A DNA stretch of 64,000 bases from an uncultured Candidatus Altimarinota bacterium (GCA_963763105.1 CAVXMT010000005.1:4685-68684); one strand, 5' to 3'; positions 2,628-59,869 are shown, numbered from the stretch's first letter. Numbers and translations are program-made. Notes: generated by a model from the sequence alone, not told the origin.

Positions 2628-4268
2628 ATGAAAATAATTTTTGTCACATGAGGTGTTCTCTCTGGTATTGGGAAAGGTATTTCTGCCGCCTCGATCGGAG
2701 CTATCCTCAAGGGTATGGGAAAGAATGTCTATTGTCAAAAGATTGACTGATATCTCAATGTTGATCCAGGAACCATGTCGCCATTCCAGCATGGAGAGGT
2801 TTTTGTCACAGAGGATTGAGCCGAGACAGATCTCGATATTGGTCACTACGAGCGATTCCTCGATACCGACATGAATCGATTTTCCTCATTTACTTCTGGA
2901 AAACTCTATGAAGAAATCATTACCAAAGAGCGTCGTGGAGATTATCTTGGTGGTACTGTCCAGATCGTACCACATTTGACGGATCTTGTGAAAGAAAAAA
3001 TACGATCAGGATTTGATCTCGCAGGTGCTGATATTTCGATCGTCGAAATCGGAGGAACAGTCGGAGATATGGAGAATGAATATATTCTCGAATCAGCCCG
3101 TCAACTTCAGCATGATCTTGGAAAAGAGAATGTAATTTTTGTTCATGTAGCACTTCTTCCATATCTTGCTGCAAGCAAAGAACTCAAGACAAAGCCAATC
3201 CAGCACTCTGTCCGAACACTCATGAGCTATGGAATCAATCCTGATTTTCTCATCATCCGTGCGGATGCCCCGATTCCAGAGGATGTGATAGAGAAGATTG
3301 CACATTCGACGGGAATTTCCAGTACACATGTGATTCCAGCGCCGACGCTTGATTCGATTTATCGAGTTCCACTTTCTTTTCATGCGGAGCATTTCTGAGA
3401 GAAGATTTTTGCTGATCTCGGACTTCCAGAAGTGAAAGCAGACATGAAAAAATGGGAAATTCTTCTTGCAAACATAGACGCTTCACACGATATTCTTCGT
3501 ATCGCTATGGTCGGGAAATATGTCGGACTTGAGGATGCATATTATTCACTCAATGAATGACTCAAAGCAGCAGGATTTGCTCATCAGAAAAAGGTAAAAC
3601 TTGAATTCATCGAAGCAGAAGATATAGAAAAGGAATTGAAAATTGAAAATTGAAAATTGAAAATTACGGATCAAGGAAAGATCTCAGAAATCAAAATCCT
3701 TCAATGATTCGATGGAATCTGCATTCCTGGAGGATTCGGGACGCGTGGAACAGAAGGGATGATCGAAGCTGCAAAGTATGCTCGAGAGAATAAAATTCCT
3801 TATCTCGGAATCTGTCTTGGCTCACAAATAATGGCAATCGAATTTGCACGCAATGTTCTCGGAATTGTGGATGCTTCGAGTGAAGAATTCAATGTTGAAT
3901 GAAAGAATAATATCATCCATATTATGGAACATCAAAAAGGCCTCACGACGAAGTGAGGAAATATGAGACTTGGATCCTATCCATGTATCATTCATGAAGG
4001 GACATTGGCTGGAAAAATTTATAATGAACTTACTGTCTCAGAACGTCATCGTCATCGATTTGAATTCAATCCTGCATATCGCGAACAGATGGAAGCAAAA
4101 GGATTTCTCGTCTCAGCGACGTCACCTGATGGGACACTTGCTGAAGTCGTAGAGATCAAAGATCATCCATATATGATCGCAACACAATCTCATCCTGAGC
4201 TTATTTCTCGTCCGACAAGACCTCATCCACTTTTCATGGGATTTGTGAAGGCAATGATCGGTTCGTAA
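2628..4268 (+). CDS. pyrG: CTP synthase
   Basis: MKIIFVT-G(TGA)-GVLSGIGKG N-terminus, GGTVQIVPH, GATase domain PGGFGTRG...LGICLGSQ...HRHRFEFN. Single frame from 2628 to the TAA at 4266. Confidence 0.95.
3634..3665. repeat. (AATTGAA)x4.5 heptamer tandem array inside pyrG
   Basis: aattgaa aattgaa aattgaa aattgaa aatt, translated in frame as ELKIEN-G(TGA)-KLKI in the inter-domain linker. Confidence 0.9.
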
Positions 4269-18279: not shown

Positions 18280-18795
18280 ATGACTCATAAAGGTACTACC
18301 AAGAAGACTGATGCTGAGATCCTCCCTGAAGAAATTGTCATTGAAGATGAGCTTCCAGTGCAAAAAGATCCAGTCGAAGAAATTAAGCGTCTTCAAGATT
18401 CACTTGCTCGTTCCCAGGCTGATTATCAGAATTTTGTCATGCGAACTGAGCGAGATAAAACTGATATGGTACATTTTCTCTCTGCAAAAATCCTCCTTCC
18501 ATTTCTTACTCAAGTAGATAATCTCGAACGTGCTGTAAAACTCAAAGAATGAATAGAGGGGGATACTTTTGTCGATGGAGTTCGGTCTGTCCTTGCAAGC
18601 ATGCAGAAATATCTAGAATCTCAATGAGTGAGTGCATTTGAATCTGTCGGGCATGAGGTCGATCCTGATCGTCATGATGTGATGACTGAAGCACCAGGTG
18701 AAGCTGGAAAGATCATTACAGAATTCGAAAAAGGATACTTGCTCAGAGATCGAGTTCTTCGTCACGCAAAAGTCGTAGTAGGTTCGTCAAATTAA
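18280..18795 (+). CDS. grpE: nucleotide exchange factor GrpE
   Basis: RSQADYQNFVMRTERD...LLPFLTQVDNLERA...FDPDRH-like...GYLLRDRVLRHAKVVV. Confidence 0.9.
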
Positions 18796-18804
18796 GTAGA
18801 CACT

Positions 18805-19416
18805 ATGAATCAAAATATTAAGGATATACTCGAGAAGATTGAATCACTCAATAATGATCTCAAAGAAGAATATAGCCGACTCTCTGAAAAGTATGGATTC
18901 TCTCTCGAAGAAAAAAGAGTTATATTTCTCGAAGAGATAAGAAAACGAAATAAAAGTCTTAAGCTTCCAAAATGGAGATTTCCAATTACATCGACTAATG
19001 TTCGACAAATTATTGCTATACCATTTATCCTTGGAATGATTGTTCCTGCTATTATTCTTGATTTTTGTATTACGATATATCATACAATAGCATTTTCTCT
19101 CTATCGAATACCAAAAGTAAAACGCTCTGAATATATTATATATGATCGGAAATTTCTCGACTACTTGAATATTATCCAACAACTCCAATGTCTCTATTGT
19201 AGCTATGTAAATGGACTTTTTGCATATTCAGTCGAGATTGCTGCCCGTACAGAGCGATATTGGTGTCCAGTCAAGGCTGCACACAAGCCAAGATTTTCTC
19301 ACGGATGGTATCAGGACTTTGCTGACTATGGAGATCCCAAAGAGTGGGAAGAGAAATACCGTCATGATGAGAAAGCCTTTGCGAATATAGAGAAAAATAC
19401 TCCTTCTACTAAATAA
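18805..19416 (+). CDS. hypothetical membrane protein with Cys-rich C-terminal domain
   Basis: Uninterrupted 203-codon ORF with no TGA. Two TM helices, then CLYCSYVNG...RTERYWCPVKAAH. Confidence 0.6.
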   Translation: MNQNIKDILEKIESLNNDLKEEYSRLSEKYGFSLEEKRVIFLEEIRKRNKSLKLPKWRFPITSTNVRQIIAIPFILGMIVPAIILDFCITIYHTIAFSLYRIPKVKRSEYIIYDRKFLDYLNIIQQLQCLYCSYVNGLFAYSVEIAARTERYWCPVKAAHKPRFSHGWYQDFADYGDPKEWEEKYRHDEKAFANIEKNTPSTK

Positions 19417-19426
19417 TTTCCTCACC

Positions 19427-20422
19427 TTGCTTCCAAAACTCCTCACATCTCGACTTCAGACAATTCTTTCGACTGATTATGATAGTGTCATAGAAGCATT
19501 TTCTCATGAGAGGAAGTGATCTTTTCGTATCAATACTCTGAAATGAGATGGTACGGAAGTATTCTCAGAATTCGAAAAGAAATGAATCAAAGTCGAGAAA
19601 TTCGACGGGATACCATGAGCGTATTTTTTTGATCGAAAAGATGACTATGCGATGAAGGGAACTGATGCTTTCTATTCTGGAAAAATCTATCTCCAGTCAA
19701 TATCAAGTATGTTTCCCGTTCGCGCACTTGATCCACAGGCAACAGATACTATTCTCGATGTCTGTGCGGCGCCTTGATCCAAGACGACACAGATAGCTAT
19801 GATGATGAAGAATGAAGGAAAGATTGTCGCTCTCGAACAAAATCAGATTCGCTATGATAAACTCATGCACAATGCTATTCTTCAGTGAGCGACTATTATT
19901 GAGTGAGTGAAGATGGATGCAAAAAAATGGCTAATTGACAATTGACAATTGATAATAAAACAACAAAAAAATTGTATCAATGATTATCCATTATCCATTA
20001 TCCATTGTCAATTTAATCGTGTCCTCCTCGATGCACCATGTAGTGCTGAGGGGCGTATCTCTCTCTCGAACGAGAAGACATACGGTTTCTGGTCCCGTGA
20101 TAACATTCAGCAAAAAGCAGAGCTTCAGTATGAACTCCTCTCTCTTGCTTTCTCTCGTCTCAGGGTAGGAGGAACTCTCGTCTATTCGACATGTACTCTT
20201 GCGCCAGAGGAGAATGAGTGAGTAATATCTCGTTTTCTCGTAGACTGTCCTGATGCACGTCTTGAATCTATAGATATATGACTTTCCCATGCGACATGGT
20301 GGAAAAATGGACTTACTTCTTTTGGTAAATCTGAATATGGAGAAGAAATGAAAAAGGCAGTTCGGGTATTGCCAAGTGATGAGACAGAAGGATTTTTTAT
20401 GGTAAAAATTATTAGACCATAA
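19427..20422 (+). CDS. RsmB/RsmF-like rRNA cytosine-C5 methyltransferase with repeat insertion
   Basis: TTG start (no ATG in the open frame). FRINTLK, DVCAAP-G-SKT, LLDAPCSAEG, LVYSTCTL. Confidence 0.8.
19933..20011. repeat. inverted pair of heptamer arrays inside the RsmB/F-like gene
   Basis: AATTGAC AATTGAC AATTGAT AAT (19933-19956), 27-nt A-rich spacer, then TTATCCA x3 TTGTCAA (19984-20011). TTGTCAATT is the reverse complement of AATTGACAA. Confidence 0.9.
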
Positions 20423-21302
20423 GGATTTTCTTCCAATCTTCTATTTTTATTGCTTCCGCTCGTATCTTCTCATCATATCAGAACTTGACGAGGATTGATC
20501 GTATATTTTCGAGATTATAGGTGCTTCATTTCAGATTCGAGAGAAGCGTCTTACGAGGATGAGTGAAAGCCACTTTCCAAATATTGAGAAGTTTTTTTTC
20601 TATCTCATGATTCCGAGATTTTTTTACAGAAAATTTGAGTACAATTGAGTCAACTTTCGGCGCCGGGTCAAATGATTCTCTTCCAACATATCGGATAATC
20701 TCAATATTGTCACAGGCTTGTTCCATGGCGAGTGAGAGAAATGAATGATGGATTTTTTTTCCTCTTCCAGCGAGGATTTTTTTCCCGACCTCTTCTTGCA
20801 TCATAATGACCATTTCTTGAGGTGGATTGAAACCCCCCTTATCAAGGGGGGTAGGGGGGATATTACCCCCTCCGACTCCCCCTGTTAGGGGGAGGGCCTT
20901 TGGATACAAAAAATGAAAAAGAATCGGACTCGTGATATAATAGGGAATATTTGCAATCACAGAATATTCTTCATAAGAAGGTATGAAGGTGAGAACATCC
21001 TGATGATGCAACGTTATTGGTGTCGTTTTTACGAGATGAGATTCATCTCAGAATATCTTCGGAGCTTCTTCGTCCCCCATGAATCGTGCATCGAGAAGAC
21101 TTACCATATCTGTATCGAGCTCGACAAGATCAAGAGAGAGAGGATGATGAGAGAGAATATACTCAGTGAGAGCACCATATCCGGGACCGATTTCTATGAT
21201 ACACTTCTCGGCGATAGTGATCGATCGTGCAATATCGGAGAGTGCCTCCTCATCGATAAGAAAGTTTTGTCCGAGGGATTTCTTCGGTTTTATAATGCGC
21301 AT
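20412..21302 (-). CDS. rsmA: 16S rRNA (adenine1518/1519-N6)-dimethyltransferase
   Basis: LGQNFL, EIGPGYGALT, ANIPYYITSPILF. Contains a G/C-palindrome insertion. TAA stop at 20412. Confidence 0.9.
20831..20895. repeat. G/C-run palindromic element, in frame in ksgA
   Basis: CCCCCCTTatcAAGGGGGG, GGGGGGAtattaCCCCC, CTCCCCCTgttAGGGGGAG. Encodes ...LPLTGGVGGGNIPPTPLDKGGFNPP. Confidence 0.85.
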
Positions 21303-24339: not shown

Positions 24340-24392
24340 TAGAAAATTCCAGAAATGGAAAAATTCAATCTAAACTCTAAAATCTTCATTTT

Positions 24393-35129: not shown

Positions 35130-36293
35130 TTACACTATAATTCCACTTCCAAGTACGCGATCTTCGTCGTAGACAACACAGATTTGTCCAGGAGTTATCG
35201 CGCGTTGAACTACCTCGAATCTCACTGTCAACTGTCAACTGTCAACTATGAATTCTCCATTTTGATCCTCTTGTCGATAGCGAATCTTGACTCAGTATTT
35301 TTTTCACGCTTCAGGAATTTCCCCACTCCATTCCACGAGAATACATTCATTTTTATAGAGCGAGAGTTCATCTTCATTTCCTACGGTGATAGTATTTGCC
35401 CGTGTATCTTTTGCAATGACAAAAAGGGCTTGCCCTCCACCGACTTTGATACCTTTTCTCTGGCCAATCGTATAGGAAAAAGCTCACTCATGTTCTCCAA
35501 TGATTTTTCCATGAATATTCAGAATATTTCCTGGCTTTTTCGGAAGTCGACGTTCGAGAAATTCTTTCATGCTTACTTTTCCGATAAAGCAGAGTCACTG
35601 AGAATCTTTCCTTTCCGCATTGGGAAGTCCTACTTTTTTTGCAATCTCACGAACTTCTGACTTCATAAGGTGTCAGATCGGGAATATTGCCTTCTCAAGC
35701 TGAAATTCTGAGAGTCGAGAAAGAAAATATGACTGATCTTTATTTGGATCGACTCATTTTAATAGTTGATAGTTGATAGTTGATAGTTGATAATTCTTCT
35801 CGGCTCTTTCATTCTCAATTCTCAATTCTCAATTCTCAATTATTCGTGCATAATGCCCGGTTGCGATAGCGTCAAATCCAAGTGAAAGTGCCTCTTCGAG
35901 AAAGAGATCAAACTTCACAAGATTGTTGCAAAACACATCCGGATTGGGAGTGCGCCCTGCATCATATTCTCTATAGATATACTCTACGATACGTTTCTCG
36001 TATTCTTCTCGATAGTCGAATGTGTAGAAAGGAAGATTGAGAAATTCTGCTACTTTTCTTGCTTCTTCGAGGTCTATCCGAGTCGGACAATATCCCCCCT
36101 GTCCCCCCTTGACAAGGGGGGTGCCCAAAGGGCGGAGGGATTCGTCTTCGAGATAATTGATCATAAATCCACAGGATACGTCATAGCCTGCTTCTTTGAG
36201 AAGATATGCGGATACTGCAGAGTCGACTCATCATGAGAGTCCGACAAGAACTTTCGTTGGATTTTTTTGGGAATGATGATTTTTATCTTCCAT
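35130..36293 (-). CDS. mnmA: tRNA 2-thiouridine(34) synthase MnmA, carrying three repeat-derived in-frame insertions
   Basis: PP-loop VGLS-G-GVDSAVSA, NPDVFCN, ATGHYAR, DPNKDQSYFL, GQRKGI. Every codon from 35130 to 35831 verified. Confidence 0.93.
35226..35246. repeat. (TGTCAAC)x3 heptamer array in the mnmA C-terminal domain
   Basis: The coding strand reads GTTGACA x3, giving IVDS-G-QLTV. Confidence 0.9.
35764..35841. repeat. two heptamer arrays (AGTTGAT)x4 and (CTCAATT)x4 separated by 22 nt, inside mnmA
   Basis: 35764-35791 and 35814-35841. Encodes IEN-G-ELRIENERAEKNYQLSTINYQLLK-G between the ATGHYAR and DPNKDQSYFL motifs. Confidence 0.9.
36088..36140. repeat. G/C-run palindromic element (same family as 20831), in frame in mnmA
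   Basis: ATATCCCCCCtgtCCCCCCTTgacAAGGGGGGtg. Encodes LRPLGTPLVKGGQGGYCPT. Confidence 0.85.
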
Positions 36294-46194: not shown

Positions 46195-46230
46195 TCTATA
46201 ATTGTAAATGGTGAATGACAAATCCCCAAA

Positions 46231-46258
46231 CAATTAACAATTAACAATTAACAATTAT
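46231..46258. repeat. (CAATTAA)x3 plus CAATTAT heptamer array in the rpmJ-rpsM spacer
   Basis: caattaa caattaa caattaa caattat. Confidence 0.9.
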
Positions 46259-46630: not shown

Positions 46631-46672
46631 TTTATTACTAAAACCTCACTCTAAACTCTAAAATCTAAACCT

Positions 46673-48784: not shown

Positions 48785-48805
48785 ATAATTCATAATTCAT
48801 AATTC
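48785..48805. repeat. (ATAATTC)x3 heptamer array in the rpoA-rplQ spacer
   Basis: ataattc ataattc ataattc. Confidence 0.9.
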
Positions 48806-48811
48806 AATACC

Positions 48812-50056: not shown

Positions 50057-50081
50057 AATCAATTATCAATTATTTCCTCCC

Positions 50082-51080: not shown

Positions 51081-51101
51081 ATAATTAATAATTAACAATT
51101 C
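51081..51101. repeat. ATAATTA ATAATTA ACAATTC heptamer array in the rpsG-rpmA spacer
   Basis: Direct reading. Confidence 0.8.
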
Positions 51102-51379: not shown

Positions 51380-51420
51380 TTCAGACTAAAATCTCAATCT
51401 AAAATCTAAAATTCCTTTCT

Positions 51421-53520: not shown

Positions 53521-54420
53521 ATGTTCCACCTCGAAAAAAACCAATATCCAAAGGATTTCTATTATCATCGTACAGCATCTGCTACCTATAGGGAGTACCT
53601 TCATACATGTAAGCTTGCAACTTTTGATATACAAAATCCACCACAATATGCATGGAAAAAACATATTTTCGGAAATTCTTTTGGAATCATAAAGTATGAA
53701 CGTATCGATGTCGAGCCCGATATCGAATATCTTAAGCAAGTGACAGGATTTCAGCATGCGTTTGTCGTATGGATACCTTATTCACGTGAGAATATCGATA
53801 GACCATGGAGATGACTCTGGCTCACAGATCACTTCGAAGAGACTGGATACGCTGAGTTAATTCATAATTGACAGTTGAGAAGTGACAGTTGAGAAGTGAC
53901 AGTTGATAATTTAGAAAAGATACCATATCTCTCTTCTTGGAATGATCGTGCGAAACGAGCACGAAAAAAATTTCTCGCTTCAGGGTGCACGATTCGTGAT
54001 GTGACTCCTGATGAATTCACGGAGGCATTCAGAACGACCAAAGTGAAACATTGGTATAAGTGAGCATACATAAGCTACTACAAGCGTATGGTTGGTATTG
54101 ATGCGACGAAGATTCGTCAATGGCTCGCATATGATCCTACTGGAAGGGTAATTGCCTGACTTGCTGTCCATGATTTCTGTGAAAATCATTCCGTCCATCT
54201 TGTGGCGTTTACTGATCAGAAATGATACCACTATCAACCTGGAACAGGGCTTATAGATCGGTGGTTTTCTGAGTCGTATGATCGTGGATACAAATATCTT
54301 TCATTCGATCAGCTTCGCAATAAAAATGGACCAAAAGACCAAAAAGGATATACGGAGTTCAAGGAAAACTTTCTCTCTGTATGACTCTCATTTAAGAAGG
54401 CATTCTTTCGATTCTTTTAG
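53521..54420 (+). CDS. hypothetical protein (possible FemAB/CelD-like acetyltransferase fold) with a 14-mer repeat insertion
   Basis: All 300 codons verified. ...HLVAFTDQK-G-YHYQPGTGLIDRWF...GPKDQKGYTEFKENF. The functional call is weak. Confidence 0.6.
53869..53910 (+). repeat. 14-mer x3 tandem array, in frame
   Basis: TGACAGTTGAGAAG, TGACAGTTGAGAAG, TGACAGTTGATAAT. Encodes -G-QLRSDS-G-EVTVDN. The last unit is identical to the tlyA repeat unit. Confidence 0.92.
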
Positions 54421-59133: not shown

Positions 59134-59869
59134 TTACAATTTTTTTATCCAGTACATCCATTCCTCATTCCCTGCCTCTCCAATGACAGTTGATTTCTCT
59201 TTTTGCAAAATTTCGCAAGATGAAGACTCAAGAAGATCTTCCCATATTTTCATTTTTTCTTCGATGATTTTTTCTCATTTTGGAATGCCAGTCTTTCGAA
59301 GATTTTCAGCACCAACTTCGAATTGAGGCTTATAGAGAAGGAAAATATTTGTCGATATATTTGCGAATCTGAGTATGGCAGGAAGTATTATTGTTATAGA
59401 AATAAAAGAAACATCGCAGGTGATAATATCATATTGTTTTTTCTGATTTTGGAATGTACGAATATCCGTCTGCTCATATGAAGTCACTCGCGAATCAGCG
59501 CTGATTCTTGTATCAAGCTGGCCTGTACCGACATCGACAGCATCTACGTGAAGTGCTCATTTTTCGAGAAGTACCTGAGTGAATCCTCCTGTCGAAGCAC
59601 CAATATCGAGACAATCACTTCCTGTAATTATCAACTGTCAATTATCAACTGTCAATTGTTCTAAAAATCCATCAAGTTTTCCAGCACTCCGAGACACCCA
59701 ATGAAGTCGCTTATCTTCAACAAGGCTAACGGTATCAGTCCCAGTAATATCAAAAGAAACTTTTGTTATGATTTTTGAATTGACGAGAACAAGTCCAGGA
59801 TTCGATAAATTGTTTTGCTTTATTTCTCGTAAATCCATACTGGAGAGCAATGTGTTGATCAAGTCGCAT
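59134..59869 (-). CDS. tlyA: TlyA-family rRNA 2'-O-methyltransferase; needs a +1 frame change near 59797
   Basis: The S4-like N-terminus MRLDQHIALQYGFTRNKAKQFIES is in the frame of ATG 59869. The rest (GLVLVNSK...DIGASTGGFTQ...TCDVSFIS) is one nt out of frame: GAA TCC t GGA. Confidence 0.7.
59627..59658. repeat. 14-mer x2 tandem array inside tlyA
   Basis: ATTATCAACTGTCA x2 followed by ATTG. The coding strand reads TGACAGTTGATAAT x2, encoding LTVDN-G-QLII. Confidence 0.92.

Follow-up and report, generated by a model that had tools for sequence, protein, structure and literature searches.

An in-frame pair of inverted heptamer arrays in the strand 3-motif IV connector of an RsmB/F-type RNA methyltransferase gene from a genome that reads TGA as glycine

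Host gene and genetic code

The stretch of DNA analysed here (the window) comprises 64,000 nucleotides (nt) from an uncultured Candidatus Altimarinota bacterium (GCA_963763105.1, CAVXMT010000005.1:4685-68684). It contains a gene for an RNA methyltransferase of the NOL1/NOP2/Sun (RsmB/F) type, which carries between two of its conserved motifs an in-frame segment composed of two mutually inverted arrays of heptanucleotide units. The gene probably starts with TTG at position 19427 and ends with TAA. It has ten in-frame TGA codons that break the open reading frame (ORF) under translation table 11, whereas under table 25 the frame is open over the entire interval 19427-20422. One of these TGAs, checked against conservation, occupies the glycine position of the invariant APGSKT motif; because of this, and because the gene is open across all ten in-frame TGAs, TGA was assigned to glycine (code 25). 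No gene for tRNA-Gly(UCA) was found in the 64-kb window. The homologues are named Candidatus Gracilibacteria and the G+C content is 38.9%; the source genome is of the code-25 (TGA=Gly) Gracilibacteria type.

Domain searches revealed that the product matches the Pfam family PF01189 (E-value 3.9e-43; 147.9 bits against a cut-off of 27) and the RsmF N-terminal domain PF17125 (34.7 against a cut-off of 34). Its sequence matches in the PDB are 1ixk, 2yxl, 3m6u and 2frx, and its fold matches in Foldseek are NOP2, NSUN6, aTrm4, RsmF and RsmB, with E-values of 1e-15 to 1e-21 and template-modelling (TM) scores of 0.65-0.77, the first four reaching 0.70-0.77. The S-adenosylmethionine (SAM) motif I (DVCAAPGSKT), motif IV (LLDAPCS) and motif VI (VYSTCTL) are all present, in invariant columns of the alignment. 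The gene encodes a NOL1/NOP2/Sun-family 5-methylcytosine (m5C) RNA methyltransferase with intact catalytic motifs. An assignment as a strict orthologue of RsmB or RsmF (acting on 16S C967 or C1407) proved unjustified for a protein of only 331 residues, as no NCBIfam equivalog cut-off was reached (RsmB, 174 against 319; RsmF, 150 against 588); the best NCBIfam match is TIGR00446 nop2p, at 197 against a cut-off of 210. The ratio of non-synonymous to synonymous rates (dN/dS) is ~0.21 relative to a sister species, and the gene is under purifying selection.

Code 4 was used for many of the public records of proteins from these Gracilibacteria genes (P0001-P0240), which puts Trp in the place of Gly (for example APWSKTT), and others are truncated at TGA. 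The methyltransferase of the window is found in the databases only as a 256-residue fragment that begins at an internal Met.

Architecture of the repeat segment

The segment had been described in a sequence-only reading as a left array of AATTGAC-type units, an A-rich spacer and a right array of TTATCCA-type units at 19933-20011, with outer units that are reverse complements of each other. Direct reading and Tandem Repeats Finder (TRF; scores of 41 and 48 for the two arrays) bore out this structure (Table 1). At the two ends, the 9-mers AATTGACAA and TTGTCAATT match each other exactly as reverse complements, and the mutual inversion of the arrays is even stronger than first described: a repeat finder delimited two arms, 19933-19956 and 19990-20013, that are 24 nt long and 88% complementary. 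The arms are complementary over the whole arrays because TTATCCA, once reverse-complemented and rotated, becomes AATGGAT, which is one mismatch away from AATTGAT. The chance of a reverse-complement match between units is P ~0.014 for at least 6/7 positions and 0.11 for at least 5/7. The interval 19933-20011 spans 79 nt, and the segment delimited by codons starts one nucleotide later (19934-20011) and measures 78 nt. Its frame stays open under code 25 alone, with an in-frame TGA (Gly) of the left array at 19943-19945, and the peptide that it encodes, LIDNGQLIIKQQKNCINDYPLSIIHCQ, is the one stated in the sequence-only reading.

The predicted fold of the segment is weak, at -10.8 kcal/mol for DNA (z -1.8) and z -1.4 for RNA relative to shuffles. 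The search of Rfam returned nothing near threshold for the segment, the best match being a plant miRNA hairpin at 28.6 against a gathering score of 72; a known RNA family was ruled out, all Rfam scores lying far under gathering. A reading of TTATCCA as a DnaA box was also rejected: the units are two mismatches away from TTATCCACA, and matches with at most one mismatch number 19 in the window against 17.6 by chance. Neither a DnaA-box cluster nor a clean skew switch was found near 20 kb.

Table 1. Repeat features, host gene and GC-rich elements in the window
Feature	Position	Strand	Units and encoded peptide	Basis or remark
NOL1/NOP2/Sun (RsmB/F-type) m5C RNA methyltransferase gene	19427..20422	+		331 aa, code 25
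Left heptamer array	19933..19956	+	AATTGAC 19933-39, AATTGAC 19940-46, AATTGAT 19947-53, AAT 19954-56	direct reading, TRF
A-rich spacer, 27 nt	19957..19983	+	AAAACAACAAAAAAATTGTATCAATGA, encodes KQQKNCIND	direct reading
Right heptamer array	19984..20011	+	TTATCCA x3 (19984-20004), TTGTCAA (20005-11)	direct reading, TRF
Codon-delimited lineage-specific segment	19934..20011	+	I169-Q194, 78 nt, 26 codons	empty-site DNA, protein alignment
Array in CTP synthase PyrG	3634..3665	+	(AATTGAA) x4.6, encodes ELKIENGKLKI	in frame; within 15-aa insertion vs solved CTP synthases (1vco)
Array pair in MnmA	35762..35841	-	sense (AATTGAG)x4-AAT, 18-nt spacer, (TATCAAC)x4	16-aa insertion vs 2hma, GHYAR...KDQSYFL loop
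Array in MnmA C-terminal hairpin	35224..35247	-	(AGTTGAC) x3.4 sense, VDSGQLTV	no length change vs homologues
14-mer array in TlyA-type rRNA 2'-O-methyltransferase	59622..59657	-	(AATTGAC AGTTGAT) x2.6 sense, LTVDNGQLII	5-aa insertion
14-mer array in uncharacterised ORF	53868..53906	+	(TGACAGTTGAGAAG) x2.7, peptide NGQLRSDSGEVTVDN	in frame
GC-rich element in KsgA/RsmA	20802-20906	-	encodes LPLTGGVGGGNIPPTPLDKGGFNPPQ	core hairpin 20833-20851
GC-rich element in MnmA	36072-36149	-	encodes LRPLGTPLVKGGQGG	core hairpin 36103-36121; 13-aa insertion vs 2hma

Position of the insert in the methyltransferase fold

When aligned with solved structures by HMMER, the methyltransferase shows a break at about residues 147-190 of the query, where it has ~20 extra residues. 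In an alignment of 38 orthologues, the short members (311-312 residues) have ~9 residues between DAKKY and FDRILLDAPCS. The empty site, as seen in the DNA of the nearest uninserted orthologues (L089, L090 and L003), is a 21-nt loop encoding S-L-P-T/S-E-x-L, and the 21 nt of this ancestral loop have given way to 78 nt in the window, with a net gain of 19 codons. The flanks, TGGCTA and TTTAAT, have no repeat in common, and the empty-site comparison revealed no target-site duplication. The description of the segment as an in-frame, lineage-specific expansion absent from most orthologues is upheld by these comparisons, but its size was overestimated, the net insertion being 57 nt (19 residues, 78 nt replacing 21) and not ~80 nt. 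Moreover, the sequence-only reading was mistaken in giving orthologues only a few residues between DVCAAPGSKT and FDRILLDAPCS, since the shortest of them have about 56.

The insert is located in the connector that joins strand 3 of the Rossmann fold (motif III, ...MDA) to strand 4 (motif IV, DAPCS). The sequence-only reading placed it in the catalytic core of an RsmB/F-like enzyme; the enzyme family agrees with the PF01189 match, but the site is peripheral and corresponds to the last ~7 residues of the strand 3-motif IV connector. In the AlphaFold2 model, which was built on the database copy P0002, a code-4 translation (Trp at TGA) without the N-terminal 75 residues, the segment corresponds to residues 94-120 of P0002, between strands 83-87 and 121-127, and has a predicted local distance difference test (pLDDT) score of 54-58, compared to >90 for the core.

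Further analysis of 117 orthologues revealed that the IRYDK anchor and DAPCS are separated by distances of several classes, namely 41-42 (62 orthologues), 52 (23), 73 (10), 67 (5) and 60-61 (4), plus others. The sequences inserted at the loop are unrelated among these length classes, and some are translated classic palindromic repeats (HCEERSNP...LAMTE, PLLGGVGGG...PP and FDKLRAGS). Orthologues with a segment of equivalent length had been named in the sequence-only reading as evidence against an insertion. Long conserved segments do exist in some clades (classes longer by 11 and 32 residues), but their sequences are unrelated to this insert; they show an indel hot spot and not an ancestral equivalent of the insert, and the criterion as worded is not decisive. 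The hot spot is the strand 3-motif IV connector itself.

Conservation in a sister species

Two sequences represent a sister species with 84% protein and about 89-90% DNA identity, namely L001 (a Logan assembly) and L002 (an NCBI metagenome-assembled genome, JAVHOR01), which differ from each other and from the window. The insert is old, and is found in this species too, with the same unit counts and a conserved spacer. There is no copy-number variation among the window, L001 and L002, only turnover of unit sequence: sister units 2 and 3 share an A-to-G change (AATTGAC GATTGAC GATTGAT), and this parallel change suggests that units turn over, through slippage or conversion, at constant length.

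Compared to the sister species, the rest of the gene has proportions of synonymous (pS) and non-synonymous (pN) differences of 0.27 and 0.068, respectively (Nei-Gojobori method), while the insert has no synonymous change in 14.5 sites and four non-synonymous changes. The zero synonymous changes were considered as a sign of nucleotide-level constraint, a signal that is lost against the local flanks, where pS is 0.13-0.16. A slip of a single unit (+/-1) in either array truncates the enzyme at 173-244 residues, before motif IV or motif VI, and the compensating combination of one unit more in the left array and one fewer in the right restores the full-length protein. The array in the methyltransferase is a latent frameshift hazard.

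Heptamer arrays elsewhere in the window and in relatives

The window contains seven exact period-7 arrays of at least three copies, compared to 0.0 in 30 dinucleotide-preserving shuffles, and the repeats are therefore beyond chance. No array of at least three copies was found in the window for the other periods 5, 6 and 8-15. In-frame arrays are also found in PyrG, MnmA, a TlyA-type methyltransferase and an uncharacterised ORF (Table 1), the last of which has no match in Pfam. Close Gracilibacteria relatives (L003, L084, L085 and L086) have heptamer arrays as well, whereas almost none occur in about 840 kb from distant relatives, drawn from a metagenome scan with the methyltransferase alignment, mostly at <=50% identity, and used only as a period-7 negative control. 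Among the arrays of the close relatives, (AGTTGAG)x4.9 lies in frame in methionyl-tRNA formyltransferase (Fmt; L085 1337-1370) and encodes VESGELRVESG. Two others are in frame in the MnmA C-terminal hairpin, namely (AATGAAG)x4.9, which encodes NEEGRMKNE (L086 11047-11080), and (AACAATG)x4.6, which encodes MNNEQGTMN (L084 10969-11000).

A TGA-bearing unit present in at least three copies puts TGA in all three frames, so that a sense-TGA array could not sit in a standard-code gene. The idea that N-G(TGA)-x-L(TTG) codons supply TTGA-N3-TTGA seeds for such arrays is neither borne out nor refuted by the counts. The window has 22 matches to this pattern against 10 expected, of which 18 are inside arrays; since only 4 of the 22 lie outside, there is no reservoir of two-copy seeds.

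Paired arrays recur beyond the methyltransferase. In a 69%-identical Gracilibacterium (GCA_028687475.1; L084 10379-10457), the MnmA loop carries (AAAATTC/AAAATTA)x4, TGGTACAGAT and (AATCTTG)x4.4, with arms that are 76% complementary over 33 nt or 83% over 24 nt. The units in the MnmA loop differ between this lineage and the window, and the complementarity of the arms is kept. In the sister species (L085 10273-10367, compared with window 35760-35839), the heptamer pair of the MnmA loop is swapped for an unrelated 95-nt GC-rich double hairpin, SSPTLLLKEKGLGTDSSSLKERGLGGEV, between flanks that are 89-92% identical, a replacement of one element by another at a single site on a short time scale.

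A further inverted pair, made of GACAATT/GACAGTT/GACAGTG-type arrays, lies between convergent genes on an ENA metagenome scaffold (L091 2486-2618) from an apparently standard-code organism; its neighbours include a sigma-54 activator and an outer-membrane efflux protein. Because of this scaffold, the ANTTGAC family and the paired architecture are not confined to Gracilibacteria. At this site the pair could serve as a terminator-like hairpin. The scaffold was encountered through a synthetic heptad-peptide profile search (IDNGQLT and relatives, with G or W), whose other matches were all short hypothetical ORFs that overlie long arrays, often in cyanobacteria (Microcoleus, Symploca); the search was discarded as a measure of how common short arrays are in housekeeping proteins.

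Outside genes, seven heptamer arrays of the window end 2-8 nt upstream of an ATG (24367-24385, 46229-46257, 46648-46670, 48785-48806, 50058-50073, 51081-51100 and 51386-51412), with units AATCTAA/ACTCTAA, AACAATT, ATAATTC, ATCAATT, ATAATTA and CTAAAAT. The genes behind them are, by their N-terminal sequences, mostly ribosomal-protein genes (L22, S13, S11, L17, S12 and L27). The same pattern is found in relatives, 13 nt before S19 (L084 20194-20229) and 13 nt before L17 (L086 2093-2111). This arrangement matches that of the TAACTGA repeats in Beggiatoaceae (PMC4679880).

Other in-frame elements and neighbouring genes

A GC-rich palindromic element, CCCCCCTTG(A/T)(T/C)AAGGGGGG with flanking runs of G and C, is present in frame in two housekeeping genes of the window, KsgA/RsmA and MnmA (Table 1), where no copy would be expected by chance (2 against 0). 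An orthologue of the methyltransferase, P0017, has a peptide similar to that of this element in the methyltransferase loop. The GC-rich element is nearer than the heptamer insert to an in-frame miniature inverted-repeat transposable element (MITE) of the Rickettsia palindromic kind.

Directly upstream of the methyltransferase, a 203-residue ORF (18796-19416, + strand) has predicted hydrophobic stretches and no match in NCBIfam. It is absent in the sister species, in which L001 and L002 join window position 18795 to 19404, and it is a lineage-specific gene gain or loss beside the methyltransferase.

Origin of the insert and alternative explanations

We consider it probable that inverted heptamer microsatellites have expanded, in frame and in this lineage specifically, a permissive surface connector of a functional enzyme, and that the expansion originated in replication errors, not in transposition, and has been tolerated; we infer a mutational origin, translation of the segment and the lack of a specific function. 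Slipped-strand mispairing would multiply the 7-nt units in a lineage prone to heptamer tandem repeats, and intramolecular, hairpin-assisted template switching would copy one arm onto the other and keep the two complementary. Selection would then act as a filter, and only arrays that are free of TAA and TAG in every phase, preserve the frame and encode a peptide tolerated by the loop could stay in a gene. Code 25 would lift the TGA barrier and let AATTGAN-type units into the reading frame, and read-through with UGA as Gly would yield a 26-residue low-complexity excursion in place of a ~7-residue loop. The unit AATTGAC translates into N-G-Q-L-T-I-D, which is rich in turn formers, and a loop that accepts almost any sequence would allow the expansion to persist. 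The frozen copy numbers need no function, because a change of +/-1 or +/-2 units would be a lethal frameshift. The single locus is best read as one case of a lineage-wide heptamer habit, and not as a mobile element or a new system.

Mis-assembly can affect short tandem and inverted repeats, and the sequence-only reading had itself raised the possibility of an assembly artefact. The insert isn't such an artefact, because the same copy numbers occur in two further assemblies, L001 and L002, with few substitutions and with the frame and the flanking conservation intact; the probability left to an artefact of assembly or sequencing is practically nil. The sequence-only reading also proposed a MITE-like or foldback architecture, which would correspond to a mobile element with tandem-heptamer terminal inverted repeats, inserted by a transposase. 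Complementary 24-nt arms around a short unique core within 79 nt, the abrupt presence or absence of the segment among orthologues, the different small palindromic element in frame in the neighbouring KsgA and in MnmA, and the in-frame MITE insertions known from Rickettsia palindromic elements (PMC10969869) would all suit such an element. It does not fit, however, with the lack of a target-site duplication, with an ancestral loop whose 21 nt are missing and not split, with a fold only marginally better than that of shuffles, or with the absence of any second copy of the spacer (<=3 mismatches) or of the whole unit within the window. In addition, unit sequence, spacer and copy number vary from one sibling array to the next, many of these arrays are unpaired, and the arms are microsatellites of a type abundant as single intergenic arrays; this transposon origin is improbable.

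A contingency switch, in which slippage of the 7-nt unit toggles the methyltransferase by phase variation as in neuO, would draw on the unit length of seven, on the frame effects of single-unit changes described above and on the precedent of NeuO for coding heptanucleotide repeats (PMC3046976). Each array has only three units, however, the copy numbers are identical and all in frame in three assemblies of two species, and similar arrays are found in the core genes pyrG and mnmA, where switching off is presumably costly. The methyltransferase itself is under purifying selection and is a housekeeping enzyme, not an accessory or surface gene, which makes such a switch a very improbable explanation. 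A functional element within the coding sequence, such as a DNA or RNA hairpin, a protein-binding repeat or an adaptive loop that modulates RNA substrate binding, is unlikely. The recurrence of an inverted pair at the MnmA loop in two lineages with different units resembles covariation, the pair between convergent genes in L091 might be a terminator hairpin, and copy number and spacer are kept between two species that differ at about a tenth of DNA positions. These points are set against a weak fold that is barely better than shuffles and has no Rfam family near threshold, synonymous changes whose absence is not significant beside flanking codons that also have low pS, and four substitutions that all change amino acids. 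Moreover, the segment is modelled at low confidence, is absent from most orthologues and is replaced by unrelated sequences in other clades, and the MnmA pair of the window gave way to a different element in the sister species.

Several observations nevertheless weigh against a tolerated expansion of purely mutational origin. The insert has 4 differences in 81 nt relative to the sister species, compared to ~12 expected at the local synonymous rate (P ~0.008) and ~22 at the gene-wide rate (P ~4e-6), which implies that it is constrained to some degree, neither neutral nor merely tolerated; the frame, selection on the peptide or on the nucleic acid, or a local recombination tract could each contribute. 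Copy numbers identical in two species are also unlike a free-running microsatellite. Sense-strand TGA is present in 12 of the 15 within-gene arrays (those of the window and of loci L084-L086), where stop-free heptamers would be expected to give 19-25% (P 5e-7 to 1e-5), and all three arrays that lack it are partner arrays within pairs. Paired arrays are reverse-complementary at four independent loci, namely the methyltransferase, the MnmA of the window (5/7), the MnmA of L084 and L091 (combined P ~0.001). The TGA bias and the regularity of pairing hint at a dedicated mechanism or selection. The mutational account does not fully cover the residual constraint, the TGA bias or the pairing rule, and a functional or dedicated-mechanism reading of them keeps a small but appreciable probability.

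Significance and comparison with known repeat systems

The single locus is ordinary in its context, and the lineage-wide pattern of TGA bias, inverted pairing and loop turnover is more notable. A broader proposal, rather unlikely in our estimate, is that Gracilibacteria harbour a distinct, actively generated class of sense-TGA heptamers, often in self-complementary pairs, that remodels loops of core enzymes (RsmF-like, MnmA, PyrG, TlyA and Fmt), and that their conservation beyond the neutral level reflects a function, for example as a register-tolerant hairpin or a translational pause. If this were true, the change of UGA to Gly would have opened coding sequence to repeats that are confined to intergenic DNA in standard-code bacteria, and the array-bearing genes, with UGA in all three frames, would be inexpressible in any standard-code host. 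The finding illustrates how a change of genetic code affects the kinds of junk or repeat DNA that can be absorbed by a proteome: TGA heptamers would stop every frame under the standard code, and here they are read as Asn-Gly- or Ser-Gly-rich loops in core enzymes. With such arrays, housekeeping genes acquire latent frameshift hazards, gene calling under the wrong code breaks down, and protein length in candidate-phyla genomes seems more variable than it is. Should both regularities, the sense-strand TGA and the inverted pairing, extend to the whole genome, the question of how bacterial heptamer repeats originate, noted as unexplained since at least 2007, would become directly testable.

Heptamer repeats characteristic of particular lineages are known from other bacteria, including TAACTGA in Beggiatoaceae, Cyanobacteria and Bacteroidetes, the cyanobacterial short tandemly repeated repetitive (STRR) sequences and GGGAATC in Xanthomonas, and an origin by slippage has been proposed for them (PMC4679880; PMC4692102). 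PMC4692102, which cites Mrazek 2007, already presents both an excess of heptamer simple sequence repeats and its explanation by polymerase slippage (the polymerase footprint). The arrays described here resemble these repeats in their 7-nt unit, in having 2-6 copies per site at many sites per lineage, in that most intergenic copies precede a start codon by a few nt, ribosomal-protein genes being among those concerned, in the occasional inverted pairs, and in that stop codons of the unit dictate the location and orientation of arrays. They differ in that they belong to a degenerate ANTTGAN family whose sense-strand TGA is permitted by code 25 alone, and in that they lie inside conserved catalytic domains of housekeeping enzymes, whereas the known repeats are essentially intergenic or found at ORF ends and in hypothetical ORFs. 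In the library searched, no report linking Gracilibacteria with heptamer repeats was found, which is absence of evidence only.

The poly-psi domain of NeuO, a prophage O-acetyltransferase of E. coli K1, is encoded by a heptanucleotide variable-number tandem repeat (VNTR) of AAGACTC, and its peptide is flexible or unresolved (PMC3046976). Both systems have coding heptanucleotide repeats in which three units make one 7-residue repeat and only frame-keeping copy numbers give a full-length enzyme. The tract of NeuO, however, is N-terminal and hypervariable, with 2-93 copies, and is a proven device for phase variation and activity tuning in an accessory gene, whereas the present arrays have three units each, form an inverted pair in an internal loop of a housekeeping enzyme and keep a constant copy number in three assemblies. 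Rickettsia palindromic elements are small palindromic repeats found in frame in metabolic and housekeeping genes that are unrelated to one another, at sites where protein fold and function can accommodate them (PMC10969869). The in-frame residence in housekeeping genes is similar, but those elements form a dispersed family, about 100-150 bp in length, whose consensus and encoded peptide are conserved, while the insert described here has 79 nt, is unique in the window and has no core in common with its sibling arrays. The paired arrays at four loci would be consistent, by analogy, with quasipalindrome correction, which is a mechanism and not a family. In quasipalindrome correction and hairpin-assisted slippage, both forms of template-switch mutagenesis, reverse-complement arms that grow in step would be made and maintained. 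Altogether, the feature is best classed as a foldback of heptamer microsatellites that is translated within a permissive enzyme loop and enabled by the TGA=Gly code.

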